In this document: piece by piece, positions 29,801-63,032 of the stretch
How positions within the stretch are numbered: the stretch's first letter is position 1
Layout: each line of letters begins with the position of its first letter
Virus record (IMG/VR): IMGVR_UViG_3300031977_002862
Location: 1 to 64,000 of that record
Length of the DNA: 64,000 nt
Direction: 5' to 3' (one strand)
DNA from: a virus
Translations under genes and position numbers: made by a program
The notes under the pieces: generated by a model
What the model was told of the DNA's origin: nothing
The model's database searches: none
Seen by the model: only the letters and a program-made list of their open reading frames with translations

Positions 29801-32800
29801 AGACGGAGAAGCTACAAGACTAAGAGGTATAGGAGCACCGAACAATCCACCCGCAGCAATTTCGTCCGGAGAGCCCGCCGGTCTTGTTTCAAGCCAGCCT
29901 AAAGCTACATAACTATCGGCAGGAGTAAAATCTACCCAAGTAGAGTTGTTATCGTACTGCCACTGGGTTCCATTCAAGCGAGCAAACGCAACGTCCATCG
30001 CTGTACTTACAACAGTGAACGGATTACCTTTAGCCGTATCAAATACTATAAAGCCTTTAGTGTCTGTTTGGCTTGTTGCAAAAGTAATAGGATCTAACGC
30101 ATTAAGTTGAACTGCGTCTACAGTTATTTTGGAACCATTCCAGATAATAAATCCATCTGTGTTTAGCTGAGGGCTTCCTTCATTATCGCACCCAACAAGA
30201 GCGCCTTCTCCGTCATTGGCAGTGCCGTCAGAGCGTTTATTTAGTAAAAGAGCTAATCCTTGGCTTGCGTTATAACTATTTAGCAGGTCTGCGTCTGCGG
30301 GTTGCGAGGTGATGTTCGATCCCCAAGTAGCTCCAGCAGTAGCACCGGCTTCAGCAACAGCATTTGTTATTTGAGTAGCATCAACTTGACCAGAACCACT
30401 TCCCGTATAGTTCAGAGTACCGTCAGAATTTATTTGAATGTCTTCATTAAATACGTTACCTGCTCCAGAACCTGTTAGAGCGACTCCTCCAATAGAAACT
30501 GTTCCTTTAAATCCTGCGCCTTCATCACTTGAATAAAAGAAAGGAGTTTGAATAATTCCATCGGTAAGGTCTATCGAAGAACCTGCCGAAGAAAAAGCAT
30601 CGGGACTTCCTGTACCGCTATAGTTATCAGATTCAATAGAGCCCGTCGTAATATTTCCACCGTCAATAACAGTTTGACCGCTCGTGGACAGATTTGTGAA
30701 GGTTACAAGATTTGTAAAGCTTGCTGCTTTTAATGCGGTGCCACCAAAAGTTAAAGTTTCACCACTATAGGTATCATTTCCAGAATTATATGTTCCGCTT
30801 TCAGATGCGGAAAATCCTATATACCAAAACTCTGCGTCCGGACTTCCACCTGTGTATGTTGGAGCATTATGGCTCCAATTAGAAAGAATTGTTCCGAATT
30901 CTCCTGTACCAAAATTCATCGTATTCGTGTCGGCACTTGTAGGAAGTGTAGTAGGTTGAGTGCTAGTTTTTACAGAGTAGAATAAATAGCCAGTTACAGT
31001 TCGAGTTCCTCGGGCACCCGTTGATCCCGTGTCTCCTTTACGAGAAATACTAAACCAAAACTGAATGGGATTGCCTGATGCAGTACTAAGATTTGAAGTG
31101 CCCCCTTCTTGATTAAAATTAAGCAGAGATACAGGAATCTTAATTTTATTGGTAGTCTCTTCTATTGGAGAACCTGTAACTAAAAAGTTTACCCAACGAT
31201 CTGAGGCTTCATACCAAGCAATTGTTGTTCCTGCTATAACTTGATTGAGCAGAAAGTCTTTATTGTCTGTTCCATTAGTTTCGCTTCTATGAAAGAGTAT
31301 ATAATCAATATCTCCCGGAGTAGTAATATCGCTCCAACTTGTAGTTCCTTTATCTGGAGAAGCTGAATTTAAAAGAAGTGCATATCTTCCCTGACCAGCC
31401 GCCTCGCCGGTAGTATCCAAATCGTCATAGTTTAAAACAGTAGAAGCTGATGGTAGAGAATTTTCGCCATCTATTGCAAGAAGAGAAGGAGTGCTCCACT
31501 CTCCCTGAGCTATTGTATCAGTAGAAGAAGTTGAAGCAGCAGTAGCCTGAGATACCCATAAATATCTTCCGGTACCTGTACTCTGTATATCATCCGTCCA
31601 GCCATTTGCAGTTGTAAAAGAAATAGCGCCGCCCAAAAAAGTATAGGTCGTGTTCCCTTCAGGTTTACCGCTATTTGATCCAGTACTTGGAGCAGTATCG
31701 GTAATAGTTCTTTGATATATAAATACTGAAGCAGTATTTAAACCATCTCCACCATCCTCTGCTAATTTAACCGGAGCTGACCACTCAGGAGAACCTATAT
31801 CGTCGGTGCTTCCGTTACCAGAAGCAGTTGCTGCTACAACATATAAAGGATCGGAGCCTCCGGTAGGTTCTTTTTGCCACCCATCATCTAAAGTAGTGGT
31901 GGTTATTTTTCCCGTACTTAGGTTTACTGTTACAGGCCCGGGATTATCTGAAGGAGCCGCTGCGCTTCTCTTATAAGCGTAGACGAGTGCATTTGAATTT
32001 CCGTCAGTTCTTACAGCATAAACCGAGCTTCCAGTCCAAGTAATAGAAGCCGAAGTACTAGTTCTGGAACCTACAGCAAGGCCAACTCCTACATAAGAAG
32101 TTTCCCCATTTGCCAAAGTAGGGGGTGTAGTACTCCAATTTGTAGGAGCTGTTAGAGTATTAGTAGTAAAATTATAAGAGCCTCCAGTAAGACCAGCATT
32201 TGAAGTTTTTCTAAATACATATACTTCGGCTACAGCGTCTGCTTCGATTTGAAACGGGCTACCCCAGTCATAGTTTGTAGCTCCTACAGCTTTCTCACCC
32301 GTGCTGGCCCAAAGAGTATAAGGAGAACCATCATCTAAAAGTGTATCGACTGCATTGGTTCTCCAGCCTACAGGTGTACCAGGAGTAGAGCTAGGAGTGT
32401 CTGGTTCACCGTCATTTCGCTTAAAGATTATATCTACACTAGCGCCTGTTTCTCCTGGAGATCCGTCTTCGCCCTCTACAGATTGAGCTAAAGATTGGAT
32501 TTTTGTTAAACTAAAAGAAGTTCCATTAGCTCTCTTTCCCTCTATAAGATAAGATACTGTAGCATTTGTAGCTGTCATATCATCATGAGGAGGGATAGTA
32601 GCGTAAGTACCCGAGTCAGTAACAGGGCTTCCTGGATCAATATTTACACCTGTAGAGGTTACTTTCCAAGTGCCATTTGAAGTTCCTACGCCGTCATAGG
32701 TAAGTTCTGTAGTACCTTCATAAACTCGAATAGTTGTTCCGGAGCCTGTATATGTAATCTGACTACCGCCTCCGGTGTTTGTAACCGGAAGAACATGGGA

Positions 32801-35800
32801 ATCATTAGGCAATATAATAGTAAGAGCATCGGTTCCGTTTGCTCCCACAGTACCTTCCTGAATACCATAAATCGAAACAGTATCAAAAGAGTAGACTCCT
32901 CCGTCAGGGGATCCTGCGTCACTTTCCGCTACTTGAAGAGTATATGAATGAACTTCGTTGGGCCCTGGTTCTCTTCTATCTGGAGATCCGGAATCAAAAT
33001 CAGGAATATCATAAGTATTTTGAGAACCCCAAGCCCTTACCTCGACCCCATCTTTTAAAAATCTATATATTGGAGAAGTATAGTTTGTGCCCGTTCCTGT
33101 AAGAGTAATAGTAGTTTCAGGGCTTTCATTACCATCAGCGTCGAATAAAATTACATATTTATTTGCTGTAAGAGTTGCGGTTTTTCCTTCTGCTCCATCA
33201 GCTCCATCAGTAGATAATAGACTTGCAGCAACCCAATCACCACTACCAATAGTTACAGTATCTGTTAAACTTTTTACATATTGCTGAACTATCCAAAGAT
33301 ATGCTCCTCCACTTGAAGGAATGCTGGTAGTCCAAGAATTAGATGGAGCAGGATCAAGTGCGCCTGTACTAAAAGTATAGGTTACTTGATTATCGGGGGA
33401 ACTAGGAGTGCTTCCAGAAGTAGTTCTACGATAAAGATTTATAAAAGCACTGTTAAACCTTCCAATAGTTGTTCCGGAAGCCTCAGTGCTATAATCGCTG
33501 TAGTAATCTCTTTGCTCCGAAGATCGAGTTGTTTGTACAGTTGTGCGAGTAAAGGCCCTTACCCAATAATAAAATGTTGTTCGAGTTTCTGGAAGAAGAA
33601 TATCGATGTAGCTTCTTTCTAGCGTGGAAGATTGATCAGCGATTTTAACGGCTGTATTTACATTATTTGAAGTACTTCTCCAAATCTCATATCCATTTGC
33701 CTTTGCAACATTATCCCAAGTTACTGTAATCTGGTTAGTTTCCTCATTCGAAGTACCGGTTCCTGTTGCTGCAACATTCGTAGGCGCAGAAGGACGGCGA
33801 ATAACCGCATCTACTTCAAGAGGTACATTGAAAGGGCTTGCTTTTGGAGCATCTATAAAATATATAGAGTCATCGTGCTCTGTAGCTACTACACTTACTA
33901 GACAATTTGTTTGATAAGTAAGGGATTGAATTCTGAAATACTTTCCGCTGTCCCAACCAAATCGAGGATATTTTACACGAATTAGTTCACCAGGACTCAA
34001 TGCTAAACCAACAGGTCGAACTGTAAAAGAAATCTGGCGAGAAAATCTTGAACGATTGAGGATCTGCTCAACAGCAAGTCGAGCATTGTAGTAGTTTGTA
34101 ATTCCTTCGAGCTTGAAAGATCCTGAACGAACAACTCCTCGATCTTGCTTCAAATAATCTGAGTTAAAGAAAGATACGTTTCGACTGTTAAAATTATTCT
34201 GAGGGTCGATAATGCTTGCAGATAAAGAATTATACGCTTTCGAAAGTCCGTCGTCTTTAATCGAAAGAGAACCAATAATATCTTCTTGCTCAATGACTCG
34301 AACACTTGAGCCTACAGAAATCCACTCAATATCAAAATCATCTGCAGACGAAAGACCCAAATCTAATCGAAGACCCGTAATATAGCTGTCTTCCCAATCT
34401 GTTCCACCAGCAGTTAGATTTGACATATCCCACGAAGCAATCACCCACTCATTTAAAACTGTGGGGTCAGAAATATCTTTTTGAAAAGAAGCCGATTCAC
34501 CGTGAGAGTCGGTAGTGTAATAAGCAGCACCATCCCAACCAGTCCCTCCAGTTCTACGTATTCTTGCACGAATAATTAAGTTTTCAGAACCTTTGAAAGA
34601 AAGATTTGATTTTCTAAATACAGGATCGGAGCCACTTGAGTCAAGAGTTATATACTCTTCTTCTTGTGTAATTGAAGCCTGGCCATTTACTGTCCAACCC
34701 TCTGAAGAGTTCTGGAAATTCCAGAAAAGTTCTCCGTCAGCATCTCTCTTTGTCTCTACTGAAAGAGTGAACTTGCCGTCCTCAAATGCAAGTATTCCAT
34801 TAAAGTGCTCAAGAATAACGCCAATAACATTAAAGACGGGCTGAGATGTATCAATTGATAAATTTCCCTGATGGCGAGTAACCCAACGCTGGTCGGGAGA
34901 GTCCCACCCAAGATACTTCCAATACTGTATAAAGTCGGAATCGTAGAGAGAATAATCTAAAACATTACCAGAGCCAGAGGCTACAGAAACACTTGTGCTG
35001 TCTCCGCCAACTTGAGTTAAGGTAAATGAAGAAATCTCAACAGCATTTGTACTTATAGTTGTTTGCAAACCACTGGTTGTATTAAATCTATAAAGACTTG
35101 ATCCAGCCTCCCAAATAATATCGTCTTGCAAGCGAGTACGGACTTTATTGAATTGATTTGTAAGTTTCCCAATACAGTCTGTAAAAGTAACTTTGAAACG
35201 ATCTGGAGAACCACTCAATGCATCTTCAATAGTTTTAATAGTTCCTTGCCACTTAAAACCACCAGTAGGCTCATACTTAAACTTATCCCCTACTGCAAGA
35301 GTATGTCCGACACTGTCTACTTGTATTTCGACTGTAATATCTGATCGAGTATCGCAAGTTCGGGCAGCTTGTAAAAAGCTATTAATATTTAACTTATCAT
35401 CAGAAAGACCCGCCCCATAACGCTTACTCTTCATATAATCTAAAAGAATAAGTCCAAAGTTTGTAGTGGGCCGAACGTCTCTTCCTTCTTCGTTTCCGTA
35501 TATTAGTACTTCATCTCCTGCTTCTGGAACTTCTCCATCGGCTAGATCAGTAGTAAGAGTTAGAATGCGAGTGGCTCCGTCGTAGTCTTTAATTACTTTA
35601 AGAGTTTCTATTATATTGCCATTAAAATCGGTTCTTCTGATTAAAACAGCTTTACCATTATAAGCATCATCAACAGAACTCGGGCTTCCAGTTGTAGAAA
35701 GTTTAATCTGATTCTTTATTGTTATATATGTAGTAGTAGAAGCATTTCCTGTTACAGTACTTATATTATTTGTAGGAGTATCATCAAGGACAGTGTTAGT

Positions 35801-38251
35801 TTGATCTACAGTTACAGTAGTTGAAGAGGTTACCGGGTTTTCTTGATATGTTGGACTCTTAGGGTTTGAACCATCAAAACCATTAGCAAGAGGAATTGTT
35901 CTTTCTGTATTTACCGAGGCTCTAGAACTTCCAGTAGAGCTTTGAGCATCTCTTACGTTGCTTGTACTTGTTGTAGCATTTATGTCAGCAGTACCACTAG
36001 AATTTATTGCAGAAATTTCATCTTGAAGTTTTGTTTCAATAGTAAAGGCTGCATTCCCTTCTGTAAAATCATATGTTGCCATGGTCCAAGTATTTGAACC
36101 ATCATCCATGTAGAATTTTTTAGCCTGCTGTAGAGAGATTTCTTGAGCCGCTGTTAAATCCCAACGAAATCTATAATTTGTATTTCCCTTCCCGTCCTGG
36201 TAAAACCACTTATCTATAATTTGAACATTTGAAGCAAGTGCAGTGTCATCAGAAGACTTTTTGATAGTTACTGTGTCGCCGAGAGAAAAATTAGTGTGGT
36301 TTTCACCACTTCCTACATGACCATAACTTCCGTCGTAGTTATAAGATTCTACAAGCTTTCCTTTTACTACGTAGTCTATATCTGGTACTGTAGTCTGGTC
36401 AGGTGTAATGGTGTGCTTAGAAACAGTATAAGCAGTATCAAGAAGTTTATGGTTTGCCCCCCAGTAATTAGTAGCTGGAGCAGATCCAAAATAATCATTC
36501 TGAAGTTTAAATTTTGTCCCGTTTGCAACACTAGATAAACGAGAAGATGCTTGTTGATCTTCTAAACCTGATTTAAACTCTATAACGGTGTCAGTAGGAC
36601 TTGTAAAATTAATTCCGTAATCATGTACAAGACCTTTTTGTCCTACAGGAACTCCGGAACTATATATTCCATTTACCAATCCATTGTAAACTTCATTTCT
36701 TTGTACGTAAACTCCAGAAGGAGCATTGAACACCCAAGAAACAAGCTCTTGTGCCGCTTGAGCATTTACTTCGGCCTCTGCTTCTATAGCTTCATAGTCC
36801 TCTACAGAAAGAGTTTGACTGCCGCTGTAAACCACTACGGAAGGGTCTACGGTATACTCTCCGAGAATTACGTCGCCTTTATCTGCTCTTCCATAACAAG
36901 CAATATCAACAGCATCGGAAGAGAAATTTGCTCCGGCAGAGTTTCTTACGTCAAAGTCTTGCTCAGAAATACAAACTAAGGGTTGGTCATCCACGTAAAC
37001 ATTCAGAATACTCTGAATCGGACCTTCAGCAAGACTTTCTGCAATATAAACTGTATCGGCGTCCGAGGTATTCTCTAAATCTGCAAAGATTGGATTTCCG
37101 CCTACACGACGAACTCCGTAAATAACAGGAATATAAGTAGCATTTAAATTAAACCTTAAATCAACTTCATTCTCTACCTCTACTTCATATTTCTTTAGCT
37201 TTTTAGTTCCGAGAAGTTTATTTCTCCATACTTCTTTATACCGTTCTTCTGTTGTAGTGTATATTGCAATTACGTTTACCGCATTATTTGCATGTTGAAA
37301 ACCCATATCGCTCGCATATTCAGGTCGAATAGTAGCATCTGGATTGGGGTTGCCATTTCTGTTTAGCGCTCTGTGGAAATCATCTGAACCTAATCGCCCT
37401 CGAACTTGTTGAAAGTCTCCCCAGTGGCTTCTACATACCCAAGAAAACTGTGCAATACCGTTTGGGTCCTCTTTATAATTTGCTGTAGCAATAATACCAC
37501 TGAAAAGAAGAACGGGAGATCCAATAAAAACATCGGGCTCGTCTTCATAGAAAAAAGCCTTATAGACAGATACCTGACGATTAACAAAGTTTGCAGCTTT
37601 TTGAGGAAGAGTAAGTGCAGTTAATTCAGTACTCGCTTGAAGAATATCATAACTTTCTCCTGTTTCTGTCCAGGTAGAGAAAGGAAAAGTCTCTTCTTCA
37701 ACTTTTACAGTTTTGCCCTCGTTTCGAAAAGAATGAATACGAAATCTCTGAAGGCTAAAGTCGGCTGTTGGAGAGCTTGCTGTAGTTGCTTTTAAACGAA
37801 TTAAGTCTCCTTCTACAAAACCAGCATCACTGAAGCTCTCATCCGCTGTAATTAAGTAATCCCCTCCAGAAGTTGAAAAAGTAAGAGATTGGTTGTAGAG
37901 AGCGGCATCAAGAGAATTTGCAGCTATATTAATAGTAAAGTTTGCTATCTTGTTTTCTGCAGAATCCTGAACAGAGGAGACACTAATTAGTTTATTGGCA
38001 TGATACGTCTGAGAACCGTTATTCAGTACAGAACCTGACTCTTCGTAAGTTGATTCATCGTTAAAATTAATCGCATAAGAAGCATCCGTTACATAAGCGT
38101 AACGAGTAAATTTTTGGCTGTATAAAACCTCTAGATTTGGTGCATTCCATTCTTTTAGTGGGCGCTCAAATTTTACAAGATGTGCATAAGTAAAAGGACG
38201 ATTCTCGTCAAGATGAAGTGCGAGAGTAGGATTTAAATCTAATTTTGCCAT
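23867..38251 (-). CDS. Giant tail-tip protein: baseplate hub (pb3-like) + FNIII/central fibre (pb4-like) + distal fibre with C-terminal intramolecular chaperone (peptidase S74-like)
   Basis: 4,794 aa directly downstream of Dit; IPVIYGVRRVGG and AEGPIQSI..VYVDD hub motifs; PSAPTNVAA..VTWD...YEIWRS...YYWVRA FNIII; C-terminal ASDARLKTNIKPI...GVIAQEV...LIEAIKE. Confidence 0.85.
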   Translation of the reverse strand: MAKLDLNPTLALHLDENRPFTYAHLVKFERPLKEWNAPNLEVLYSQKFTRYAYVTDASYAINFNDESTYEESGSVLNNGSQTYHANKLISVSSVQDSAENKIANFTINIAANSLDAALYNQSLTFSTSGGDYLITADESFSDAGFVEGDLIRLKATTASSPTADFSLQRFRIHSFRNEGKTVKVEEETFPFSTWTETGESYDILQASTELTALTLPQKAANFVNRQVSVYKAFFYEDEPDVFIGSPVLLFSGIIATANYKEDPNGIAQFSWVCRSHWGDFQQVRGRLGSDDFHRALNRNGNPNPDATIRPEYASDMGFQHANNAVNVIAIYTTTEERYKEVWRNKLLGTKKLKKYEVEVENEVDLRFNLNATYIPVIYGVRRVGGNPIFADLENTSDADTVYIAESLAEGPIQSILNVYVDDQPLVCISEQDFDVRNSAGANFSSDAVDIACYGRADKGDVILGEYTVDPSVVVYSGSQTLSVEDYEAIEAEAEVNAQAAQELVSWVFNAPSGVYVQRNEVYNGLVNGIYSSGVPVGQKGLVHDYGINFTSPTDTVIEFKSGLEDQQASSRLSSVANGTKFKLQNDYFGSAPATNYWGANHKLLDTAYTVSKHTITPDQTTVPDIDYVVKGKLVESYNYDGSYGHVGSGENHTNFSLGDTVTIKKSSDDTALASNVQIIDKWFYQDGKGNTNYRFRWDLTAAQEISLQQAKKFYMDDGSNTWTMATYDFTEGNAAFTIETKLQDEISAINSSGTADINATTSTSNVRDAQSSTGSSRASVNTERTIPLANGFDGSNPKSPTYQENPVTSSTTVTVDQTNTVLDDTPTNNISTVTGNASTTTYITIKNQIKLSTTGSPSSVDDAYNGKAVLIRRTDFNGNIIETLKVIKDYDGATRILTLTTDLADGEVPEAGDEVLIYGNEEGRDVRPTTNFGLILLDYMKSKRYGAGLSDDKLNINSFLQAARTCDTRSDITVEIQVDSVGHTLAVGDKFKYEPTGGFKWQGTIKTIEDALSGSPDRFKVTFTDCIGKLTNQFNKVRTRLQDDIIWEAGSSLYRFNTTSGLQTTISTNAVEISSFTLTQVGGDSTSVSVASGSGNVLDYSLYDSDFIQYWKYLGWDSPDQRWVTRHQGNLSIDTSQPVFNVIGVILEHFNGILAFEDGKFTLSVETKRDADGELFWNFQNSSEGWTVNGQASITQEEEYITLDSSGSDPVFRKSNLSFKGSENLIIRARIRRTGGTGWDGAAYYTTDSHGESASFQKDISDPTVLNEWVIASWDMSNLTAGGTDWEDSYITGLRLDLGLSSADDFDIEWISVGSSVRVIEQEDIIGSLSIKDDGLSKAYNSLSASIIDPQNNFNSRNVSFFNSDYLKQDRGVVRSGSFKLEGITNYYNARLAVEQILNRSRFSRQISFTVRPVGLALSPGELIRVKYPRFGWDSGKYFRIQSLTYQTNCLVSVVATEHDDSIYFIDAPKASPFNVPLEVDAVIRRPSAPTNVAATGTGTSNEETNQITVTWDNVAKANGYEIWRSTSNNVNTAVKIADQSSTLERSYIDILLPETRTTFYYWVRAFTRTTVQTTRSSEQRDYYSDYSTEASGTTIGRFNSAFINLYRRTTSGSTPSSPDNQVTYTFSTGALDPAPSNSWTTSIPSSGGAYLWIVQQYVKSLTDTVTIGSGDWVAASLLSTDGADGAEGKTATLTANKYVILFDADGNESPETTITLTGTGTNYTSPIYRFLKDGVEVRAWGSQNTYDIPDFDSGSPDRREPGPNEVHSYTLQVAESDAGSPDGGVYSFDTVSIYGIQEGTVGANGTDALTIILPNDSHVLPVTNTGGGSQITYTGSGTTIRVYEGTTELTYDGVGTSNGTWKVTSTGVNIDPGSPVTDSGTYATIPPHDDMTATNATVSYLIEGKRANGTSFSLTKIQSLAQSVEGEDGSPGETGASVDIIFKRNDGEPDTPSSTPGTPVGWRTNAVDTLLDDGSPYTLWASTGEKAVGATNYDWGSPFQIEADAVAEVYVFRKTSNAGLTGGSYNFTTNTLTAPTNWSTTPPTLANGETSYVGVGLAVGSRTSTSASITWTGSSVYAVRTDGNSNALVYAYKRSAAAPSDNPGPVTVNLSTGKITTTTLDDGWQKEPTGGSDPLYVVAATASGNGSTDDIGSPEWSAPVKLAEDGGDGLNTASVFIYQRTITDTAPSTGSNSGKPEGNTTYTFLGGAISFTTANGWTDDIQSTGTGRYLWVSQATAASTSSTDTIAQGEWSTPSLLAIDGENSLPSASTVLNYDDLDTTGEAAGQGRYALLLNSASPDKGTTSWSDITTPGDIDYILFHRSETNGTDNKDFLLNQVIAGTTIAWYEASDRWVNFLVTGSPIEETTNKIKIPVSLLNFNQEGGTSNLSTASGNPIQFWFSISRKGDTGSTGARGTRTVTGYLFYSVKTSTQPTTLPTSADTNTMNFGTGEFGTILSNWSHNAPTYTGGSPDAEFWYIGFSASESGTYNSGNDTYSGETLTFGGTALKAASFTNLVTFTNLSTSGQTVIDGGNITTGSIESDNYSGTGSPDAFSSAGSSIDLTDGIIQTPFFYSSDEGAGFKGTVSIGGVALTGSGAGNVFNEDIQINSDGTLNYTGSGSGQVDATQITNAVAEAGATAGATWGSNITSQPADADLLNSYNASQGLALLLNKRSDGTANDGEGALVGCDNEGSPQLNTDGFIIWNGSKITVDAVQLNALDPITFATSQTDTKGFIVFDTAKGNPFTVVSTAMDVAFARLNGTQWQYDNNSTWVDFTPADSYVALGWLETRPAGSPDEIAAGGLFGAPIPLSLVASPSATVGATAGVDLKDEGGETIQSTAIVVDRLRDNFEQYADSADFLTYWTSHTAAGEITFSSTSYSGGTSLSIGNNSGNDERWLISKQLIPFDPSRIYRVRVVARQTAGSGAAYFGFGGFAADKTTLVNIDGTNTHSSQHYFAAVGVDIPDAWTLYEGYFSGHGASAGGYNSRTFLDPAVAHPNVRYIAPLILVQYNGAAGTTLVDNIVIEEVQAASAIPGYWRVRRSANSPDDLDAPSNSEVFAVAGRNPIDGDIVLVYDGSSPPKVAEWSYDGSAWSFGNTLRINSSLIVDGSITGRAVASDTTITAGTGATSASLSGVGDYRFYTGSTPTSGTFSVKSDGLVNARNLVLRSSEGTVYFDSNDGGFSFPALTEIAQVSQTKVETYAENHNTAGQYATISTAVDNSNVTVRVRVKAFAGFSAIGYSYNGDSAASTLAKIPTSLTITFDVDDDTSFNGSTIVSIAAGGNGTVSGDSYTRTFTRITSGTPTSTQYKVVQTEDTEIIDLGYEGGEQLFVTLTTYTANVEFGGSSCIDASGYITLDTATDTVTLAAADDTYYFRTALSYAGTGVATENQWSGTTAREIAITDATTDGGFVPGGSGGSQTVGAADITGVAITTNNGITGGATVTSGDASFTLGLGAITPTSVTTPSLILEGTATPEITFNGTSDSSVDFAIKATPEALDFYEPEDTNKLHMRITDDSGVNAVFGLRTGSGDGTERIDASGNIILEKTGTATVSETSYSSQTLEFRASGWDTNNAVAKDVNWKIRNIPTASVYPDHDLTFIESDQGSEWTTFVLHGRGSNSWTDPLAASFYGNVNINVHPGSPDRGAGAGNLTVANTVTWDGGSSTNANTAYTYSQVGHLPLAGGTLTGPLAVDANNTTAANFNSGTTNVVAIFESEDSDAWLDLRDSNSGTYGALLGHDSTNLFKIADSGVTVRFSVSNTGTVNASAFVGTLYSSTIYMGTSSPDNNDSITYNDTALFNTGGYYYFQADSYAAGIIAGQLFIGNDSTSGTGQASQNGLIRLGEGGSEGSPNAAAGLEFVSANVNNGYGWRIFNPDNGSGDVPLIIQRRVNAAAWSTHATFEPGGSTGFGVVTWTGGSSTNANTAYTYSQVGHLPLTGGTLTGSLTVGSTTDSATIVFPDKNVADSPTVSGDKRKLISMGNSGNGGLWQTTGRGGLMLASADDTLILASGDIGRNYDPDAGGWNPDADSEEIYLLTDGGVRFRTGLQNTSTYKEFVFDGSGNTTIPGSFVVNGTTRIASSGEFYPASLQSTDKISVLDGSSAQGIRVESLYAGTSYASDGSAAGYVDVLNGYRVGGSTVIDSSRNINLISTGATSPIINFSNNDAGIDFAIRSNSDALDFYEPEDSDKLQMRITDDIGVNAVFGLRTGSGNGTLRIDASGNATLGTISATSLDLTTNALSLNSANVRLKTQKTINLTAFSTSNFYPVVLTNPGNVTSTHHFVISQNSQSGNDPYNNNMIVGWARGQGWSDMTLAYDFHYNAYQDNERTILGMYRGTASSNVIIFYLRGGETYYFHTESDATVYTSGYNSGTSSTSLTVAMVKDANGNDITGQSDASQQLNRVADILGGGQGYYRSHSYLNHPLTMKGNSSVDSGSFTLNGGSGVGALIMNYQASSTNYRGLVDWRTLHLGNNGENNILAGNTSANGFLRFWVNATSDSISGGTSGTNSLTLNANGTSTFTDKVIITNSTYGSHIDLIRDSDTINLSPSAGQLLVSGGFSPSVSNSIDLGRTDKYWQDLWLGTSLKMGGTTVIDSSRNITGVTGYFYKAGTSNTQTTVLTLGSNSTRPVLQFSESTATGLTSGMSIEYNGFATGVSNYIAVNNVAGSVVFRVYSGGDIQTTGNITAYASDARLKTNIKPIESALEKVQLLRGVEFDWRDDVEEKGFNPSVRHETGVIAQEVQEVIPDAVVPAPFDDNYLTVQHQKIIPVLIEAIKEQQEQIEELKAIIKEKLNGNN
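25592..25725 (-). repeat. Fibre direct repeat A' (partner at 27629-27762)
   Basis: Near-identical DNA incl. GCCAGACCCAGTTCGTAATCCGAATACCGCGTTGAC; encodes LDFYEPED..KL.MRITDD.GVNAVFGLRTGSG.GT.RIDASGN. Confidence 0.9.
26447..26491 (-). repeat. Fibre direct repeat B' (identical 45-bp partner at 27209-27253)
   Basis: GAGTGGAAGATGTCCTACTTGAGAATAAGTGTAGGCTGTGTTTGC occurs twice; encodes ANTAYTYSQVGHLPL. Confidence 0.92.
27209..27253 (-). repeat. Fibre direct repeat B
   Basis: Identical to 26447-26491. Confidence 0.92.
27629..27762 (-). repeat. Fibre direct repeat A
   Basis: Near-identical to 25592-25725. Confidence 0.9.
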
Positions 38252-45217: not shown

Positions 45218-46429
45218 TTATGCCTTATAAATAATCGTGGCTTCGTTGGTTGAATCAACATTGCCATCTGCTACCTGACCGTGGAAAGCGACTTCCAGCG
45301 TAAGCAAATCTTCAACATTAATTACAGGCACTTCGAGGTGTGCTGTGGGAAGGTCGAAAGCAATACGAGGAGTATTTGTGGTTTCGCCTCCAATATTTAC
45401 AGTCATATCGAATACGTTTCTGACTGTTGAAGTATCGCTCACTAAGTCTGCAAAAAGTTCTCCTGATTTACTCTGGTTGGTATCATTATCAAGATAACAG
45501 GTTAGAGATCCTGAAATTGAACGAGCACCAGTAATATTTGCAAGAGGAGCATTTACAACACCGAGTTCCTCCGGAGTGAGGTAGGTGATGTTATTTTCCA
45601 TAGAAATACTTCCACCGGTAAGAACAATACTGTAAACATCTTGAATATTATCGGGAGAAGTTGATTCATTCAAACCAGCATCAGGTGAGCCAATAAACTT
45701 ATCGTTTCTTACGAGAGAAAGTGTTGAGATTCGGTTACGAATAAAGTTTGTTGTATCAGTAAGACCATTTGAAATTACTTTATCAGGAGAAGTGTTACCA
45801 AGCTCATCAGGTTGAGTTAGTCCTTCATCTGAAATTTGCTTTGCAAAACCGCTCCACTGAAGAGTTGCAATTCCATCGATATCAAAATCCATCGTAATAG
45901 AGTTTACGACGGCACTCTGAAGTTTATAGTACTGTTTATTGTCCCCATCTTCAAAAGCAAACCAAATATCCCAGTTATCGGGCATCGATGAAACATTTGA
46001 CTGGCTAAAATCAAATGTGTTTGTTGAATCAAGAGCGGGACTTTGATCTACTAAACTATTTACAGCGTTGCCGCCCTTTTTAAATACTTCGTTATTTGTA
46101 TCCCACGTATCAGCACCTACAAACATGGCCCATAAAGACTCTTCTACAGCGTGACATTTTGAGTCATTATCCGGACTAGAAGTTGAGTCAAAAGGTCGAG
46201 CATAAGTACTCATTGACCATTCTACAGGGGCCAAACTGTCATTGAAGAGCAGTCTTGCTCGTCGTGAAGTTGTTCCTGCTTCATTGATCGTAATTTCTGA
46301 AGAATTAATTGATTGCGTAAAAGAAAAGCCATCAAGTACAGAAAGTTTCCATGATTGTACATGATTTCCTGAACTGGCGTCTCTCAACGAAACGTATACT
46401 TCTGCATTTCTTGTAAATTGTAATGCCAT
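45218..46429 (-). CDS. Major tail tube protein (T5 pb6-like)
   Basis: VLDGFSFTQ, FNDSLAPVEWSMSTY.RP, FDIDGIA, NNITYLTPEELG.VN.P. Confidence 0.9.
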   Translation of the reverse strand: MALQFTRNAEVYVSLRDASSGNHVQSWKLSVLDGFSFTQSINSSEITINEAGTTSRRARLLFNDSLAPVEWSMSTYARPFDSTSSPDNDSKCHAVEESLWAMFVGADTWDTNNEVFKKGGNAVNSLVDQSPALDSTNTFDFSQSNVSSMPDNWDIWFAFEDGDNKQYYKLQSAVVNSITMDFDIDGIATLQWSGFAKQISDEGLTQPDELGNTSPDKVISNGLTDTTNFIRNRISTLSLVRNDKFIGSPDAGLNESTSPDNIQDVYSIVLTGGSISMENNITYLTPEELGVVNAPLANITGARSISGSLTCYLDNDTNQSKSGELFADLVSDTSTVRNVFDMTVNIGGETTNTPRIAFDLPTAHLEVPVINVEDLLTLEVAFHGQVADGNVDSTNEATIIYKA

Positions 46430-57897: not shown

Positions 57898-58128
57898 AGA
57901 GGCATATTCGGGGTCGTATTGAGTCCATACTTCACACTGAAGAATCGGATCGAGACCACCATTGAGGCTTTTCAAATATTTTTTTCTTTTGGGAGAGTTG
58001 AGGGGCTTCATTCGATACTCGCAGTAGCTTTCACCTCTTTTTTGGCAGGCTAGAATCTTTCTCTCGATGTGTTCGGAGTACAGAATACCTCCGGGGAGGA
58101 GAAGAAGAAAGAGAAGCACGGCACCCAT
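57877..58128 (-). CDS. Possible small membrane-anchored Cys-containing protein
   Basis: Hydrophobic N-terminus and four Cys; no clear SD; may be spurious. Confidence 0.3.
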   Translation of the reverse strand: MGAVLLFLLLLPGGILYSEHIERKILACQKRGESYCEYRMKPLNSPKRKKYLKSLNGGLDPILQCEVWTQYDPEYASSICPKD

Positions 58129-58196
58129 TTAGGCGTACCGTGTTTCGTCTTCGGTTTCAAAAATTGTGGGGCAGAGAGCGCGGCAGGAGGGTTCCT

Positions 58197-58415
58197 TTAG
58201 GCTTCTGCGTCTTGCGACTTTTTTGAGACAGTGTACCCTGCCTTTTCCCACTCTGCAATCGTGCGACACTTTTTCACTTTGCGTGAGCCAGTAACGGTTG
58301 CGACTTCTACACGAGCACAGAAAACTTCTCCGTCTTCGGATTTGGCGACATAATCTTTCTCATCTGCTAGAAGAGCGAAGGGCGAGAGAAGTACAGCGGC
58401 GAGTAAATATTTCAT
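58197..58415 (-). CDS. Small secreted/periplasmic protein (position of T5 llp)
   Basis: Signal peptide MKYLLAAVLLSPFALLA; C...TGS...C.T..EW pattern; SD AAGGA. Confidence 0.75.
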   Translation of the reverse strand: MKYLLAAVLLSPFALLADEKDYVAKSEDGEVFCARVEVATVTGSRKVKKCRTIAEWEKAGYTVSKKSQDAEA

Positions 58416-58464
58416 TTGATTGTTCCTTGTCTGGGCTTTGAAATCTTTGTTGATTTCGGTGCAT

Positions 58465-58519
58465 ATTATACAGGTCGTGTGTTGCTTTTTGATAAAGATT
58501 TTGTTAAGATTCGGTTAAG
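58465..58519 (-). promoter_or_regulatory. -10 element plus three 11-bp-spaced direct repeats (OmpR-family box-like)
   Basis: TATAAT at 58470-58465 with no consensus -35; plus strand TAAAG-N6-TTAAG-N6-TTAAG at 58493-58519. Confidence 0.55.
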
Positions 58520-58708
58520 ATTAGCACCATTTGCGGTTCAAAAATACCCCAAGTTGCGCATGAAGGTGGGCGCGAGCGCGCGCTTATAACTTTTGTCTAT
58601 AAACCGCCCCCTCTATATAACAAATTAATCTAAAAAAATATTTGCAAAGGGCTTGTGCTCTCGGTCGCGATATGCGAGAATCATCCTATCAATTAAGGAT
58701 GAAACGAA

Positions 58709-58906
58709 ATGACTAGCTACACAATCAGCCACTTTCAAAAGGTTAACGCTAACGCCAGCAAAGCAAGCCGCTTTGTCATTGAAGCTCACAACATCCGCAA
58801 CGCAATGCGGAAGCTTTGGGACGCTCACGGCGTCAACCTAATCAACGGCGACACCATCACATGGCAAGATGGCGGCCGCTTCCACCGTTTAATGATTAAC
58901 CAATAA
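58709..58906 (+). CDS. Pre-early-type hypothetical protein
   Basis: SD AAGGA; first ORF of the GC-richer segment. Confidence 0.65.
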   Translation: MTSYTISHFQKVNANASKASRFVIEAHNIRNAMRKLWDAHGVNLINGDTITWQDGGRFHRLMINQ

Positions 58907-58918
58907 GGGGGTCAGGTC

Positions 58919-59083
58919 ATGGCTTTTCTTCTGAAATTTTTGCTAGAGGCTTGGGCGATCATCGCGCTAATAATTGGCATGATTACTGCTTTCCTCGGCG
59001 CTCCGCTTTGGGCCGCCTTCCCAATCGTTTGCGCGATCGCTTGCGCTTATTCAGCAAGCCTCATTGATGAAATTCTGGAATAG
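58919..59083 (+). CDS. Small membrane protein, 54 aa (not in ORF track)
   Basis: MAFLLKFLLEAWAIIALIIGMITAFLGAPLWAAFPIVCAIACAYSASLIDEILE; SD GGGG. Confidence 0.6.
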   Translation: MAFLLKFLLEAWAIIALIIGMITAFLGAPLWAAFPIVCAIACAYSASLIDEILE

Positions 59084-59162
59084 GATATATTCCGGATTTT
59101 CTCTGGACTTTTTCAAAAACCGCAGGCATACTATGCCTGTTCAATCAACTAAAGGAGACGCT

Positions 59163-59465
59163 ATGTCTAACTACTCAACTTCAATGGTAACTGCTCTTCA
59201 ATCTCAATCTTGGGATTATGAGAGCGCCTCGGCCTTCGCTGCCGAGCACAATCTGTCGGTTCGTTCTGTCATCTCCAAGATTAAAAATCTTGACCTTGAC
59301 TATACGCCAAAGCCTAAGACGGTTTCCACCGCTGGCCCTCGCGTTGTCAAAGCTGACATTGTGGACGCCATCACCAAGGCGCTAGACGCTGACCCCGACT
59401 CGCTCGCGGGTCTGGCTAAAGCTGACGCTCGCGCACTCAACGCGCTATTGATGGCGATTAGCTAA
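59163..59465 (+). CDS. A2: T5 A2-like DNA-binding pre-early protein, copy 1
   Basis: SD AAGGAG, ATG at 59163; SVRSVISK..L..Y..K...KADIV..I...LAGLAKA...L resembles T5 A2 as I recall it; upstream TGGACT-17 bp-CATACT promoter. Confidence 0.72.
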   Translation: MSNYSTSMVTALQSQSWDYESASAFAAEHNLSVRSVISKIKNLDLDYTPKPKTVSTAGPRVVKADIVDAITKALDADPDSLAGLAKADARALNALLMAIS

Positions 59466-59665
59466 TGCTTATCAATGCCTCCGCTTGGGTTGGGACCGCT
59501 CTCATGGGGGCGGCTCCCTTCCTCATCGACTCGGCCACTGGTAAGATCATGGCAATTTTAGGGCTCGCGCTTTTATGCTTGCAAGCCTACGATAAAAAAT
59601 GCTACAATCTGATCATATTAAACTTGATAGGAATTTTCGGTTATGCTTCACACTTTTATCTTTGA
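59465..59665 (+). CDS. Small 3-TM membrane protein
   Basis: Three hydrophobic segments; coupled to both neighbours. Confidence 0.65.
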   Translation: MLINASAWVGTALMGAAPFLIDSATGKIMAILGLALLCLQAYDKKCYNLIILNLIGIFGYASHFYL

Positions 59666-60107
59666 TCTCGACGGCACGACCGTCAACTCTGATCACCGAC
59701 TCGGCGAGACTCTCGCAGACTGGCGCAGGATGAATACTCCCGCCAACATTATGCGAGATACTCCGCTCCCGTTGGCCGAGCAAATGCGCCAGGCCATCCG
59801 CGATGGTTTGGACGTTGTGATCTTGACCTCGCGTGTTATGGGTCACGCTGACCGCGTTTGGCTACATGCTCACGGCATGGTTGCCCCTGTCATTATGTCG
59901 CGGCATATCAGCGACAATCGTCCGGCTGGTGAATACAAGCTTGCTAAACTTCACGAGCTTGCCGTTGATCGTCGCGTCTCATTCCGCGATCTGGCCGCCT
60001 CGGTCGTCATGTGGGATGATGACTCGGATGTCCAACAAACTCTCGCAAATGCTGGCGTTCGCGTCATCGATCCTGTAAACTTCAATCAATTAGCAGAGGC
60101 TATCTAA
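59643..60107 (+). CDS. HAD-superfamily phosphatase
   Basis: Motif I FDLDGT, motif II ILTSR, motif III K, motif IV WDD. Confidence 0.85.
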   Translation: MLHTFIFDLDGTTVNSDHRLGETLADWRRMNTPANIMRDTPLPLAEQMRQAIRDGLDVVILTSRVMGHADRVWLHAHGMVAPVIMSRHISDNRPAGEYKLAKLHELAVDRRVSFRDLAASVVMWDDDSDVQQTLANAGVRVIDPVNFNQLAEAI

Positions 60108-60775
60108 TGAAACAGATTATCCTAACCCTTGACACTGAAACCGCAGACCTAACCGGTGATGTCTATGATGTTGGCTTTGTGGTTCATACGCGAGACGGTG
60201 AGATTCTCGAAACTTACAATGCGCTCGTTGAAGAGATCTTCACGGATGCTAAGAAAATGATGGGCGCATTCTATGCTTCAAAACTTTTCACCCACTACAG
60301 CAAAATGCTTTCCGAGCAATCTATCGGCTTTGCATCTTGGGGTGATATCGTTGCCAACATTCAACGCGCTATCGCGGAGCATGGCGTTACCACTATCGCC
60401 GCCTACAATCTCGGCTTTGACCGTCGTGTCATGCGAAACACTCACCGAGCGCTCGGCTTTTCTGGCTCCATTTGTCCGGCTGGCTTGCAACAGCTCGACA
60501 TCTGGCAATTTGCCTGCGAAACCAAATTGAGCCAAGCCACCTACAAAAAACTCGCTCGTGAGGCTGGCTGGGTTTCTGCCGCTGGCAATATCAAGACGGG
60601 CGCAGAATACGCATATCGATTTTGCTCTGGCGATTTTGGATTTATCGAAGATCATACCGCCTTGAGCGATGCTTTAATCGAGGTTCAGATTCTCGCGGCT
60701 TGCTTTGCAACCAAGAAAAAAATTCCGTATAATATCGTGAACGGCGCACCTTGGAGGATTGTAAACAATGGCTAA
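60107..60775 (+). CDS. DEDDh (DnaQ-like) 3'-5' exonuclease
   Basis: ExoI LDTET, ExoII AYNLGFD, ExoIII HTALSDA. Confidence 0.88.
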   Translation: MKQIILTLDTETADLTGDVYDVGFVVHTRDGEILETYNALVEEIFTDAKKMMGAFYASKLFTHYSKMLSEQSIGFASWGDIVANIQRAIAEHGVTTIAAYNLGFDRRVMRNTHRALGFSGSICPAGLQQLDIWQFACETKLSQATYKKLAREAGWVSAAGNIKTGAEYAYRFCSGDFGFIEDHTALSDALIEVQILAACFATKKKIPYNIVNGAPWRIVNNG

Positions 60776-60875
60776 AAAATTCGCAGCTCTGGCTTTCAAA
60801 GCCTATCTTGTTTATTCCGTCACCGCTGACTTGCTCGTCATCGCTGGCATAATTTACCTAATCTTTGGAGGCTAG
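60768..60875 (+). CDS. Small membrane peptide, 35 aa (not in ORF track)
   Basis: MAKKFAALAFKAYLVYSVTADLLVIAGIIYLIFGG; SD GGAGG upstream; its end carries the SD for ppk2. Confidence 0.6.
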   Translation: MAKKFAALAFKAYLVYSVTADLLVIAGIIYLIFGG

Positions 60876-60878
60876 AAA

Positions 60879-61487
60879 ATGCTCAAGGAACAACAAGCAA
60901 GACTCAATCGGATTTTAGACTCTCGGGGGCATGGCGGGATTGCCGTTGTGCTTGAAGGTCGCGACACTGCCGGAAAATCTAGCACGATTCGCGAGGTTAC
61001 GCATTATCTGAATCCGGCAAAATACAGCGTGCATCTCTCGCGCAAGCCTAGCAAATCCACCATGAAACACTGGCTCGGGTATTGGTCAAAACGAATGCCC
61101 GCAACGAATCAAATCGTATTTTACGATCGAAGCTGGTATTCTCGCGCAATGGTTCAACGCATGAACGGCTGGTGCTCAGAAACTCAATATGAGAATTTTC
61201 TGGCAAAGCATAAATCATGGGAAGAAAAGCAGGGCTTGCGTTTTATTAAATTCTGGCTTTCGATTTCAGAAGAGGAACAACGCCGCCGAATTGAACGCCG
61301 CAAAGCTTCGCCTCTCACCTATTGGAAATTTTCCGAGAATGACGAAAATGCGCTCTCGTATTATGACCGCATGACGCTCTTAAAGGAGCGCGTCATTGAT
61401 TCCGATTGGCACGTGATCGACTACAACGACAAGCGCCAGGGCATCCTTGACCTCACCACCCGCCTCTGTGACCTGCTAGAATCCTAG
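60879..61487 (+). CDS. ppk2: Polyphosphate kinase 2 (class I-like, compact)
   Basis: Walker A VLEGRDTAGKSSTI, Walker B FYDRSWYSR, KFWLSISEEEQ, lid R..SPL..WKFS.ND. Confidence 0.92.
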   Translation: MLKEQQARLNRILDSRGHGGIAVVLEGRDTAGKSSTIREVTHYLNPAKYSVHLSRKPSKSTMKHWLGYWSKRMPATNQIVFYDRSWYSRAMVQRMNGWCSETQYENFLAKHKSWEEKQGLRFIKFWLSISEEEQRRRIERRKASPLTYWKFSENDENALSYYDRMTLLKERVIDSDWHVIDYNDKRQGILDLTTRLCDLLES

Positions 61488-61494
61488 CAGGTTT
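61471..61494 (+). terminator. Hairpin spanning the ppk2 stop
   Basis: ACCTGCTAG-AATC-CTAGCAGGT-TT; short U tract. Confidence 0.45.
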
Positions 61495-61502
61495 CATGCC
61501 AA
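61487..61502 (-). promoter_or_regulatory. sigma54-type -24/-12 element (copy 1, imperfect)
   Basis: Minus strand TTGGCATGAAACCTGC, GG-N10-GC. Confidence 0.55.
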
Positions 61503-61508
61503 CTTTTT

Positions 61509-61524
61509 TGTTTCACGTGAAACA
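61509..61524. promoter_or_regulatory. parS: parS centromere site (perfect consensus palindrome)
   Basis: TGTTTCACGTGAAACA. Confidence 0.85.
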
Positions 61525-61538
61525 TGAGAAAAACGCGC

Positions 61539-61551
61539 TAACCCCTTGATT
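61539..61551 (-). promoter_or_regulatory. IHF binding site
   Basis: Minus strand AATCAAGGGGTTA matches WATCAANNNNTTR. Confidence 0.65.
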
Positions 61552-61657
61552 TTATTGGATTTTTGGCGCGCGGGCGCCAGTGCGAAAGTGAAGTTCTGAA
61601 CCTATGTGGCGCGCGTAAAATTTCGAGAGTGCAGTTTCGAGGCTATAGTCTCTTATA

Positions 61658-61673
61658 GCAAGAACCGTGCCAA
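61658..61673 (-). promoter_or_regulatory. sigma54-type -24/-12 element (copy 2, full consensus)
   Basis: Minus strand TTGGCACGGTTCTTGC(T) = TGGCACG-N4-TTGCW. Confidence 0.75.
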
Positions 61674-61694
61674 GTTTTCGGCGCGGCCGCGCCT

Positions 61695-61723
61695 ATTATA
61701 GTGCAGTTCCGAACCTATGTCAA
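61695..61723 (-). promoter_or_regulatory. Orphan leftward sigma70 promoter with GC-rich discriminator
   Basis: TTGACA-17 bp-TATAAT then AGGCGCGGCCGCGCC; no minus-strand ORF follows. Confidence 0.8.
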
Positions 61724-61779
61724 GAGTTTTTTACACTTGATGTGAAAAAAATTATTTCACCTAGTCTCCTAAAAAATTG

Positions 61780-61808
61780 TTGACACGGCTTGCTCCATCC
61801 CATATAAT
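61780..61808 (+). promoter_or_regulatory. Consensus sigma70 promoter for A2-like copy 2
   Basis: TTGACA-17 bp-TATAAT. Confidence 0.88.
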
Positions 61809-61853
61809 ATCCGCATTGATTGAGAGAACACACACAAACAAAAGGAAAAATTT

Positions 61854-62165
61854 ATGTCTGCATACACTGATAAAATGGTAAACGAACTCAAAGCTGTTGA
61901 CTCTTGGAACTACGACCTTGCCTCCGACTATGCCGCTCTGCACGGCCTGTCAGTACGCTCTGTCATCTCCAAGCTCAAGAACTTAGACATTGACTACACG
62001 CCCAAGCCTGTTGTCAAAGCAGCAAGCCCACGCATTCGCAAGGCTGACATTGTTGTCCAGATTGCCGAAGCATTAGGCATGGCTGACAATGCCGAAGCCC
62101 TGGCGGGATTGGAGAAAGCTGACGCACGCTCGCTCACTGCAGTGCTCAAGCAATTGCCCTGCTAA
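61854..62165 (+). CDS. A2: T5 A2-like DNA-binding protein, copy 2
   Basis: Clear paralogue of 59163-59465 (LSVRSVISK.KNLD.DYTPKP...PR..KADIV..I..AL...LAGL.KADAR.L). Confidence 0.75.
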   Translation: MSAYTDKMVNELKAVDSWNYDLASDYAALHGLSVRSVISKLKNLDIDYTPKPVVKAASPRIRKADIVVQIAEALGMADNAEALAGLEKADARSLTAVLKQLPC

Positions 62166-62181
62166 GGCTTGCTGAAACCAC

Positions 62182-62206
62182 AAAGCCCCGATAAGGGGCT
62201 TTTTTT
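62182..62206 (+). terminator. Rho-independent terminator after A2-like copy 2
   Basis: AAAGCCCC-GATAA-GGGGCTTT-TTTT. Confidence 0.85.
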
Positions 62207-62232
62207 ATGCCTGTAGAAAGCGCTCGGCGCCA

Positions 62233-62261
62233 ATTTTAGTGCCAAAGTGATGGCATGTCAA
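62233..62261 (-). promoter_or_regulatory. Second orphan leftward sigma70 promoter with GC-rich discriminator
   Basis: TTGACA-17 bp-TAAAAT then TGGCGCCGAGCG; same AAAAAACTC-TTGACAT upstream as the 61723 promoter. Confidence 0.7.
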
Positions 62262-62474
62262 GAGTTTTTTAAATTTTAGCACTTATTTAAGTTTTAGAAG
62301 GTCTTGTCGGGGCAAGAGCAAGTTTTTTTAACTTTTTAAGACTTTTGCAAGCAAATAAAACTTGACCCGAAGTGGTCGTGAGCGCCCGCCCCCGATAAAA
62401 TTTGCGTCTGCTCTCAGAAGCCCCGGAAAGTAAGAAAACCACCTAAATTTTGTGTAGATCTACCTATTTTTTAG

Positions 62475-62538
62475 GTAAAATTTACGGTTTTTAGTTTTTG
62501 ACGTGGTGCCTAAATTAGTTTTTTAAGTAAAATTTACG
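62475..62538 (+). repeat. Direct repeat GTAAAATTTACG x2 embedded in T tracts
   Basis: Copies at 62475-62486 and 62527-62538, each with CCTAAATT upstream. Confidence 0.75.
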
Positions 62539-62569
62539 ATTTTTTTCATAGGTCCGGTGTAAATATCTT

Positions 62570-62598
62570 TTGACACAGTTGCTCTCAGCTCGTATAAT
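62570..62598 (+). promoter_or_regulatory. Consensus sigma70 early promoter
   Basis: TTGACA-17 bp-TATAAT. Confidence 0.88.
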
Positions 62599-62621
62599 AT
62601 ACGGAAATTAGGAGCAAAATT

Positions 62622-63032
62622 ATGATGTTAAAAAAGTTAGAGATTGCAAGAATTACGATGGAGTTGGTATCCGACTACTTCGGGCTGCACGGCACTCGTG
62701 TTAAAGTTGTGCCCACCAGAGAAGTAGGAGACCAAGATAACGCGTACCTCAAGCCCATTTCGGACTGGGAGTATGAGATCGAAGTGCATCCTGACTTTAT
62801 GAAAAACTCTACAGAAGAAGAGTTAGTCAAAGTTATTGCTCACGAAATGACTCACGTAAAACAGTATGAATACGACGACCTTGAACTTGGTGTGAAGTGC
62901 CAATACTGGAAAGGTGAGATATATGACGAAGAGGTCGAAGGCTACTGGTTTATGCCTTGGGAGATTGAAGCCCGAGGTTATGAAGCAGCCTTCTGGGCTC
63001 TTTATTCAGACAAATGGGAGCAGTATGTCTAG
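62622..63032 (+). CDS. Zincin-like (HExxH) metallopeptidase-domain protein
   Basis: IAHEMTHVKQY...YW.MPWEIEARG; SD AGGAG. Confidence 0.75.
   Translation: MMLKKLEIARITMELVSDYFGLHGTRVKVVPTREVGDQDNAYLKPISDWEYEIEVHPDFMKNSTEEELVKVIAHEMTHVKQYEYDDLELGVKCQYWKGEIYDEEVEGYWFMPWEIEARGYEAAFWALYSDKWEQYV

Follow-up and report, generated by a model that had tools for sequence, protein, structure and literature searches.

The locus described here raises the question of why a site of the type bound by a bacterial chromosome segregation protein stands at the end of a phage operon. The stretch analyzed, hereafter the window, spans the first 64 kb of an IMG/VR virus record of 91,844 bases (IMGVR_UViG_3300031977_002862, here G000) with an estimated completeness of 91%. 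The site is a perfect chromosomal-type parS, a 16-bp palindrome of the kind onto which the segregation protein ParB is loaded, and it lies in a 366-bp intergenic gap (61488-61853) between ppk2, a gene of the polyphosphate kinase 2 family, and a 103-residue gene that resembles A2 of phage T5. A sequence-only reading of the window had joined parS to a match for integration host factor (IHF), two sigma54-type elements, and a left-facing sigma70 promoter, and had proposed that the five form one docking array for host proteins at a position like that of the injection-stop signal (iss) of T5. All five motifs are present where they had been placed. Analysis of related genomes identifies parS as a real, conserved candidate site for the loading of host ParB, and the multi-factor injection-stop model is only partly supported.

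The parS sequence, TGTTTCACGTGAAACA (61509-61524), is an exact match over 16 bp to TGTTNCACGTGAAACA at the position reported in the sequence-only reading, and the match is unique across the whole 91.8-kb record. Its conservation was followed in two sets of loci. A search anchored on ppk2, in which parS was not demanded, returned 42 related IMG/VR loci with 62-95% protein identity; a parS variant is found in 34 of these, and six of the eight loci without one had too little flanking sequence to tell. The distance from the ppk2 stop codon to parS in these loci ranges from -8 to +697 nt, plus one at -4047. A second scan, which demanded only one parS half-site and a GC palindrome, returned 60 loci representing 50 distinct modules, and the half of the palindrome that had not been demanded, GTTYC, is present in all 50. 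Information content reaches 2 bits at undemanded parS positions 1-3, compared with 0.03-0.34 bits over the 29 nt to the left, and the conservation footprint across the 50 modules is exactly 16 bp with unconserved flanks. Inner variation is confined to positions 5 (T/C) and 12 (A/G), the same positions at which chromosomal parS sites differ from one another. Three forms occur in the clade: TGTTCCACGTGGAACA, which is the commonest, TGTTTCACGTGAAACA, and the mixed form TGTTCCACGTGAAACA. The TGTTCCACGTGGAACA form also occurs in two of five genomes of marine gammaproteobacteria in which the closest cellular ppk2 genes are found.

Within the modules, parS always directly follows the operon of A2-like, dmp-like, exonuclease-like, and, in some, ppk2 genes. 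The sequence to the left of the site differs wholly among relatives, as it belongs to another gene end or ppk2 has moved across the module. In 11 relatives (L057, L058, L071, L072, L091, L093, L094, L099, L100, L105, and L107), ppk2 is found on the right of parS, at a distance of 0.5-1.1 kb. The left flank of the site is an arbitrary gene end. Despite this changing left flank, the gap from the end of parS to the GC palindrome stays within 26-51 nt. In the window, the GC palindrome (61565-61578) reads GGCGCGCGGGCGCC and is followed by AGTGCGAAAGTGAAGT (unit 1). The universal TTTTGGCGCGnGGGCGCCAGT palindrome is found 3′ of parS in all relatives that have parS.

Exactly one parS per genome is observed in two near-complete relatives, and no ParB_N gene was found in four genomes of the clade that are 91-100% complete. 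Because parS is so precisely conserved in genomes without a ParB gene, the natural ligand would be host ParB. Similarly, the site stays within the universal parS sequence space as its surroundings diverge, which points to an external, conserved ligand. From the identity of the sequence, its conservation, its synteny, and the lack of a ParB gene in the phage genomes, we infer the binding of ParB and its consequence. We lean toward assigning the palindrome as a site where the chromosomal ParB of the host is loaded, at the border of an iss-like control region, and the phage probably borrows the ParB protein of its host. In such a mechanism, parS would be kept by this clade of uncultured marine T5-like siphoviruses as the first element of the untranslated region, on one side of which lies the pre-early-type operon (A2-like, dmp, exonuclease, ppk2) and on the other the early genes. 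After entry of this stretch into the cell, dimers of host ParB would bind parS and, in the presence of CTP, would form closed clamps that seed a small complex of the partition type on the phage DNA. This complex would then tether or position the early control region with the host ParB/ParA machinery, and the remaining motifs would be separate features of the same control region.

Several observations weigh against this assignment. The host may lack ParB or this parS variant. A protein of the phage could bind the palindrome instead. The module is present without parS in two relatives (L006 and L025), which indicates that the site is dispensable or can be lost in some lineages. In most relatives, parS comes after the stop codon of the upstream operon and before a terminator-like hairpin; if the operon is transcribed through to this hairpin, RNA polymerase would pass over parS. 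Finally, perfect parS sequences are present in more than 119 other, unrelated IMG/VR contigs (loci L152-L231), and some of these single sites are probably due to chance. A single match taken alone would therefore mean little.

The spacing between parS and the GC palindrome bears on a different explanation, in which these two palindromes are operators for a phage protein, such as the products of the flanking A2-like paralogs, or are structural elements of the DNA, and the match to parS is convergent or incidental. Two A2-like genes do flank the module, the region is full of other conserved palindromes and repeats without a known host ligand, and the constrained distance from parS to the GC palindrome is what paired operators would show. 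An operator of the phage could co-evolve freely with the protein that binds it, yet the 50 diverged modules remain in canonical parS sequence space as the sequence around the site changes, and a ParB-type helix-turn-helix protein is not encoded. We regard the operator explanation as unlikely. The palindrome AATGAGAA was considered as a Fur box; it agrees with the Escherichia coli consensus at 13 of 19 positions, which was taken as a resemblance only.

Comparison with known partition systems shows both likeness and difference. The palindrome is identical to that of chromosomal ParABS sites (parS consensus tGTTNCACGTGAAACa), and its variation is limited to the known degenerate positions. In contrast to those sites, parS is found here in single copy, in an apparently lytic phage genome without parA or parB, and beside promoters rather than an origin. 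The partition cassettes of plasmids and prophages (P1 parABS, N15 sop, and F sopABC) resemble the phage site in being cis-acting centromeres on mobile elements. Those cassettes have their own ParA and ParB and private site sequences, whereas the marine clade encodes neither protein and copies the chromosomal site of the host.

The untranslated sequence that follows parS contains repeats. A unit of ~40 nt, repeat family D1, is present in three copies on the plus strand (61568-61607, 61609-61648, and 61681-61720), and a fourth, partial copy is found at 62215-62265. Beyond the 103-residue A2-like gene is a second untranslated repeat region (62166-62621), which holds a terminator (62182-62202), a left-facing promoter (62261-62233), direct repeats (62467-62544), and a right-facing promoter (62570-62598). 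The untranslated stretches of the window are thus 61488-61853 and 62166-62621, and the architecture of the module is conserved in ~50 relatives. At the left edge of the gap, an 8-bp hairpin, CCTGCTAG-AATC-CTAGCAGG (61472-61491, plus strand), spans the ppk2 stop codon; it was read directly from the sequence and is not in the list from the terminator scan. In 37 of the 50 modules, parS is followed by an AT-rich hairpin that has an A-run on one side and a T-run on the other. The arms of this hairpin occur as 27 different sequences; it thus covaries and looks like a bidirectional terminator. The window is without this AT-rich hairpin, and its variant of the spacer matches the IHF consensus instead.

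These repeats, the AT-rich hairpins, and the strong promoters in both directions are also what would be seen if the untranslated region were a replication origin combined with a centromere, with the repeats acting as iterons, the promoters activating the origin, and host ParABS segregating an episome in a carrier or pseudolysogenic state. The cumulative GC skew has its minimum at 60-62 kb, and bacterial parS sites in general cluster near origins. The skew minimum, however, largely follows the switch in gene strand, and the repeat units are themselves consensus promoters. In addition, the origins of T5 are near the center of the genome and not in the terminal repeat (Davison, 10.1101/866236). 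A gene for an initiator, an integrase, or ParA was not noticed near the region, where the only dedicated search was for ParB_N. An origin with a centromere is a quite improbable account of the region.

The IHF match, AATCAAGGGGTTA (61551-61539, minus strand; consensus WATCAANNNNTTR), has the coordinates given in the sequence-only reading. The consensus has six matches in the window, compared with 5.0 expected, which is chance level and gives the match no weight alone, and it is present in the spacers of only four of 50 modules. The match is attributed to chance. No HU/IHF gene was found in the four genomes that are 91-100% complete.

The two sigma54-type elements are on firmer ground as a class. 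Element 1, TTGGCATGAAACCTGC (61502-61487, minus strand), has the -24 GG and the -12 GC at the correct spacing and overlaps both the ppk2 stop codon and the 3′ arm of the hairpin at that codon. Element 2, TTGGCACGGTTCTTGC (61673-61658, minus strand), has the full consensus. The exact core TGGCACGGTTCTTGC occurs once, and with up to one mismatch there are two matches compared with 0.64 expected. In the loci of the clade, the pattern TGGCAYG-N5-TGC is found in 41 distinct contexts, compared with none for a control read backward, and the clade consensus can be written as aaagTTGGCACGattcTTGC, aaagTTGGCACGattcTTGCtt.ag, or aaagTTGGCACGattcTTGCttaag. About 40 elements of this class were seen in clade loci L002-L111, with window copies at 58975 (plus strand), 61501, and 61672 (both minus strand); some are inside an open reading frame (ORF) for a small membrane protein upstream of the A2-like/dmp operon.

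Proximity of these elements to parS is less regular. In nine of the 50 modules, a copy is present at most 300 nt from parS, always on the minus strand. Homologs of element 1 are found 22-54 nt to the left of parS, with one at 89 nt, in eight other modules, again always on the minus strand, and element 2 is common at its position only to the closest relatives (L012, L013, and L065). The elements thus stand as placed in the sequence-only reading and belong to a real element class, and their place beside parS is shared by only a minority of the modules; they are a real, recurrent but optional cassette. The agreement with sigma54-dependent promoters (TGGCACG-N4-TTGC) extends to the -24 GG, the -12 GC, and the exact spacing. 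As differences from such promoters, the phages here are without an activator ATPase, elements 1 and 2 have no downstream gene, and some copies elsewhere form face-to-face inverted pairs. Since such pairs are unusual for promoters, the label of sigma54 promoter is based on the consensus alone. No Sigma54_activat gene was found in the same four genomes; the host could supply an activator.

The recurrence of several kinds of host-type sites in the same region across the clade is compatible with a decoy, in which the hundreds of copies of high-affinity sites present after replication (parS, sigma54 sites, and Fur-box-like palindromes) would titrate host ParB, sigma54 holoenzyme, and other regulators and thereby disrupt chromosome segregation and regulation in the host. 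The phages encode no ParB, sigma54 activator, or HU/IHF of their own, as a decoy for host proteins would have it. One parS per genome would nevertheless make a weak sponge compared with a multi-site array, and a strictly conserved position at the end of an operon would not be needed. Titration is accordingly rated as very improbable.

The left-facing sigma70 promoter, TTGACA-N17-TATAAT (61723-61695, minus strand), matches the consensus at 12 of 12 bases, and a right-facing perfect promoter detected in the promoter scan (61780-61808, plus strand) serves the second A2-like gene. Perfect TTGACA-N17-TATAAT sequences number six in the window and 15 in the record, compared with a chance expectation that we estimate at ~0.01, and the phage clearly uses consensus sigma70 promoters. 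Several perfect promoters face regions without an ORF of at least 100 residues, as at 66255 on the minus strand. The sequence-only reading had called the left-facing promoter an orphan with no minus-strand gene downstream. No minus-strand ORF of at least 40 residues is found in the 61488-61853 gap downstream of the left-facing promoters, and no smaller one is convincing, in agreement with that description. Rather than a solitary element, this promoter is one of the one to four left-facing promoters, with 11 or 12 of 12 consensus bases, present in 40 of 43 modules, and it is thus a conserved feature. In all 40 of these modules, the left-facing promoters are located between parS and the first right-facing promoter. 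The AT-rich, terminator-like hairpin lies between parS and these promoters in most relatives, where a transcript would be ~70-300 nt in length and would end before parS. The left-facing promoters most likely give rise to short non-coding transcripts terminated at the hairpin before parS. A search of Rfam gave no known RNA family in 61300-62700.

The relation of this region to the iss of T5 depends on the identity of the phage. The tail-tube protein (45218-46429) has ~31% identity to 908 records of the Demerecviridae, including T5 and T5-like phages of Vibrio, Salmonella, and Klebsiella, and PHROG matches in the phage include a tape-measure protein, a family A DNA polymerase, an SbcC-like nuclease, and ribonucleotide reductase. 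Homologs of the tail-tube protein, dmp, and A2 mark the phage as a distant relative of T5; the sequence-only reading had spoken of related T5-like marine phages. The late structural genes occupy the minus strand from 16 to 57.8 kb and are followed by the A2-like gene, dmp, the exonuclease gene, and ppk2, then by the untranslated repeats, and then by small genes of early type. T5 has the identical polarity: late genes, the terminal repeat with the pre-early genes and iss, and early genes. The pre-early neighbors were tested against the T5 set of dmp, A1, and A2; dmp and two A2 homologs are present, and neither pairwise comparison nor a search of the record revealed an A1 homolog.

In T5, the annotated iss (9140-10149) is untranslated and contains numerous repeats, a major nick, and DnaA boxes. 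A set of eight DnaA boxes is conserved in the iss of 25 T5-like phages, and membrane-bound host DnaA has been proposed to stop injection there (Davison, bioRxiv 10.1101/866236). The docking idea of the sequence-only reading may be seen as a parallel to this proposal. The region described here and the T5 iss region (Repeat Region 3 of the terminal repeat) are both large, untranslated, and conserved, with direct repeats, palindromes, and GC-rich units. Both adjoin pre-early genes (dmp and A2) and precede early genes, and in both there is a consensus site for a protein that maintains the host chromosome; some marine relatives also share the T5 motif AATGAGAAYNATT. The differences are that parS is found here instead of paired DnaA boxes, that A1 was not found, that the dmp operon is inverted, and that one to four left-facing consensus promoters are present. 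The T5 sequence at the major nick (NC_005859, 9740-9775), CCCTGCGC|TTTTGTGCAAATCCGAC, resembles the marine unit CCTGCGCC-ATTATAA-GTGCAAAAGCGA, and the marine repeat units may be related to the T5 nick or DRD repeats.

The full injection-stop model holds that parS, the IHF site, the two sigma54 sites, and the left-facing promoter recruit ParB, IHF, and non-firing RNA polymerase and that the resulting plug halts, anchors, or licenses second-step DNA transfer. It is consistent with the T5-like gene order of late genes, pre-early homologs (dmp and A2), untranslated repeats, and early genes, and with the conserved DnaA boxes of the T5 iss that prompted the host-DnaA docking model (10.1101/866236). 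In T5, the motif AATGAGAAYNATT is found nowhere but in the iss of the two terminal repeats, and the palindrome AAATGAGAAYCATTCTCATTT is found within ~30 nt to the left of parS in ~10 of the 50 relatives; AAATGAGAAYCATTCTCATTT and AATGAGAAYNATT are absent from the window itself. The gene order, together with the presence of the iss-specific AATGAGAAYNATT palindrome beside parS in some relatives, makes an iss-like position of the region plausible. In Vibrio phage Thalassa, the AATGAGAAYNATT motif is found just after dmp, near the end of the repeat, and the position of the motif is thus not uniform across the family.

Other results run counter to the model. The five sites do not form one array with conserved co-occurrence and fixed spacing in relatives, given the chance-level IHF match (four of 50 modules) and the presence of sigma54 elements beside parS in only nine of 50. 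No A1 homolog was found, and the dmp operon is opposite in direction to that of T5 and Thalassa. DnaA boxes are few, with 13 in ~37 kb of module sequence (0.35 per kb, compared with 0.12 per kb across this record as a whole) and one in the region of the window. The assemblies of related genomes circularize: the ends of G001 overlap by 184 nt, and the flagged direct terminal repeat of G003 was rejected as such, as it is a 4,911-bp wrap of the assembly that runs over the terminase and portal genes and into the capsid gene. Contig ends were likewise set aside as evidence of termini, since the contigs end or break near the module at no common point, variously within repeat units or within genes. 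On general physical reasoning, proteins that bind in the cytoplasm should ratchet DNA inward rather than stop it. The halting or licensing of DNA transfer and the recruitment of non-firing RNA polymerase are pure inference, and the complete model is held to be doubtful, with a small probability.

In a more general form of the docking idea, the untranslated region beside the pre-early genes of T5-like phages may hold a site that docks whatever chromosome-maintenance protein is available in the host, namely DnaA boxes in the enterobacterial relatives, whose hosts are without ParABS, and parS in the marine clade; the entering DNA would then be captured by an origin-region protein of the host, which would help to pause entry or to position the genome. 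We consider this generalization possible but improbable. No parS was found in T5 or in two Vibrio T5-like phages.

The genes that surround the site are of pre-early type. The first A2-like DNA-binding protein gene (paralog 1, 133 residues; 59064-59465, plus strand) matches phrog_1725 and has 35% identity to T5 A2 over 81 residues (E = 3e-4). It opens the pre-early-type operon and lies to the left of parS in most relatives. It is followed by a dmp-like HAD phosphatase gene (154 residues; 59643-60107, plus strand), which has 37% identity to T5 Dmp over 84 residues (E = 1e-12), matches phrog_415 and, weakly, the Pfam Hydrolase family, and is kept at this position in relatives. The exonuclease-like gene (222 residues; 60107-60775, plus strand) matches phrog_20187 at 8e-43 and, weakly, phrog_192; it has no similarity to T5 A1. 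The last gene before parS in this genome is ppk2 (60879-61487, plus strand; Pfam PPK2 at 3e-42), and its closest cellular homologs, with ~40% identity, point to Porticoccaceae, Cellvibrionales, or Pseudomonadales. On the other side of the gap, the second A2-like gene (paralog 2, 103 residues; 61854-62165, plus strand) also matches phrog_1725 and has 32% identity to T5 A2 over 102 residues (E = 6e-5). A nucleotide search of a 2.3-kb region against cultured phages gave no match.

The pre-early-type block coincides with a rise in G+C content to 0.47-0.49 at 58000-62000, compared with ~0.40 elsewhere. In the structural module, the tail region contains a single ORF of 4,794 residues (23867-38251, minus strand). 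Both ends of the record (G000 1-200 and 91645-91844) seem, by eye, to be inside coding sequence resembling the A2-like domain, and the assembly may have broken within a gene of repeated domains. Beyond the window, ARAGORN detects a permuted, two-piece transfer-messenger RNA (tmRNA) with the tag ANDEVYDLAIAA (G000 71772-72115, minus strand), which recalls lineages with two-piece tmRNAs and is a possible clue to the host lineage.

Host-type parS sites are also seen outside this clade. Among the other IMG/VR contigs with a perfect parS, several (L159, L168, L187, L188, and L189) carry three to five copies, and ParB_N is absent from 49 of 50 sampled records. The presence of parS without ParB may be a wider viral trait. 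A literature search on host-type parS in lytic phages and on sigma54 phage promoters found nothing on point, which is absence of evidence only.

The cis-acting signal that pauses the entry of T5 DNA is a decades-old question, for which the binding of host DnaA to DnaA boxes is, to our knowledge, the sole concrete proposal. A second, independent site for a host protein at the equivalent place in a distant T5-like clade would offer a comparative handle on this question. The parS site of this clade also points to a little-explored interaction, in which lytic phages would make use of the chromosome segregation machinery of their hosts.

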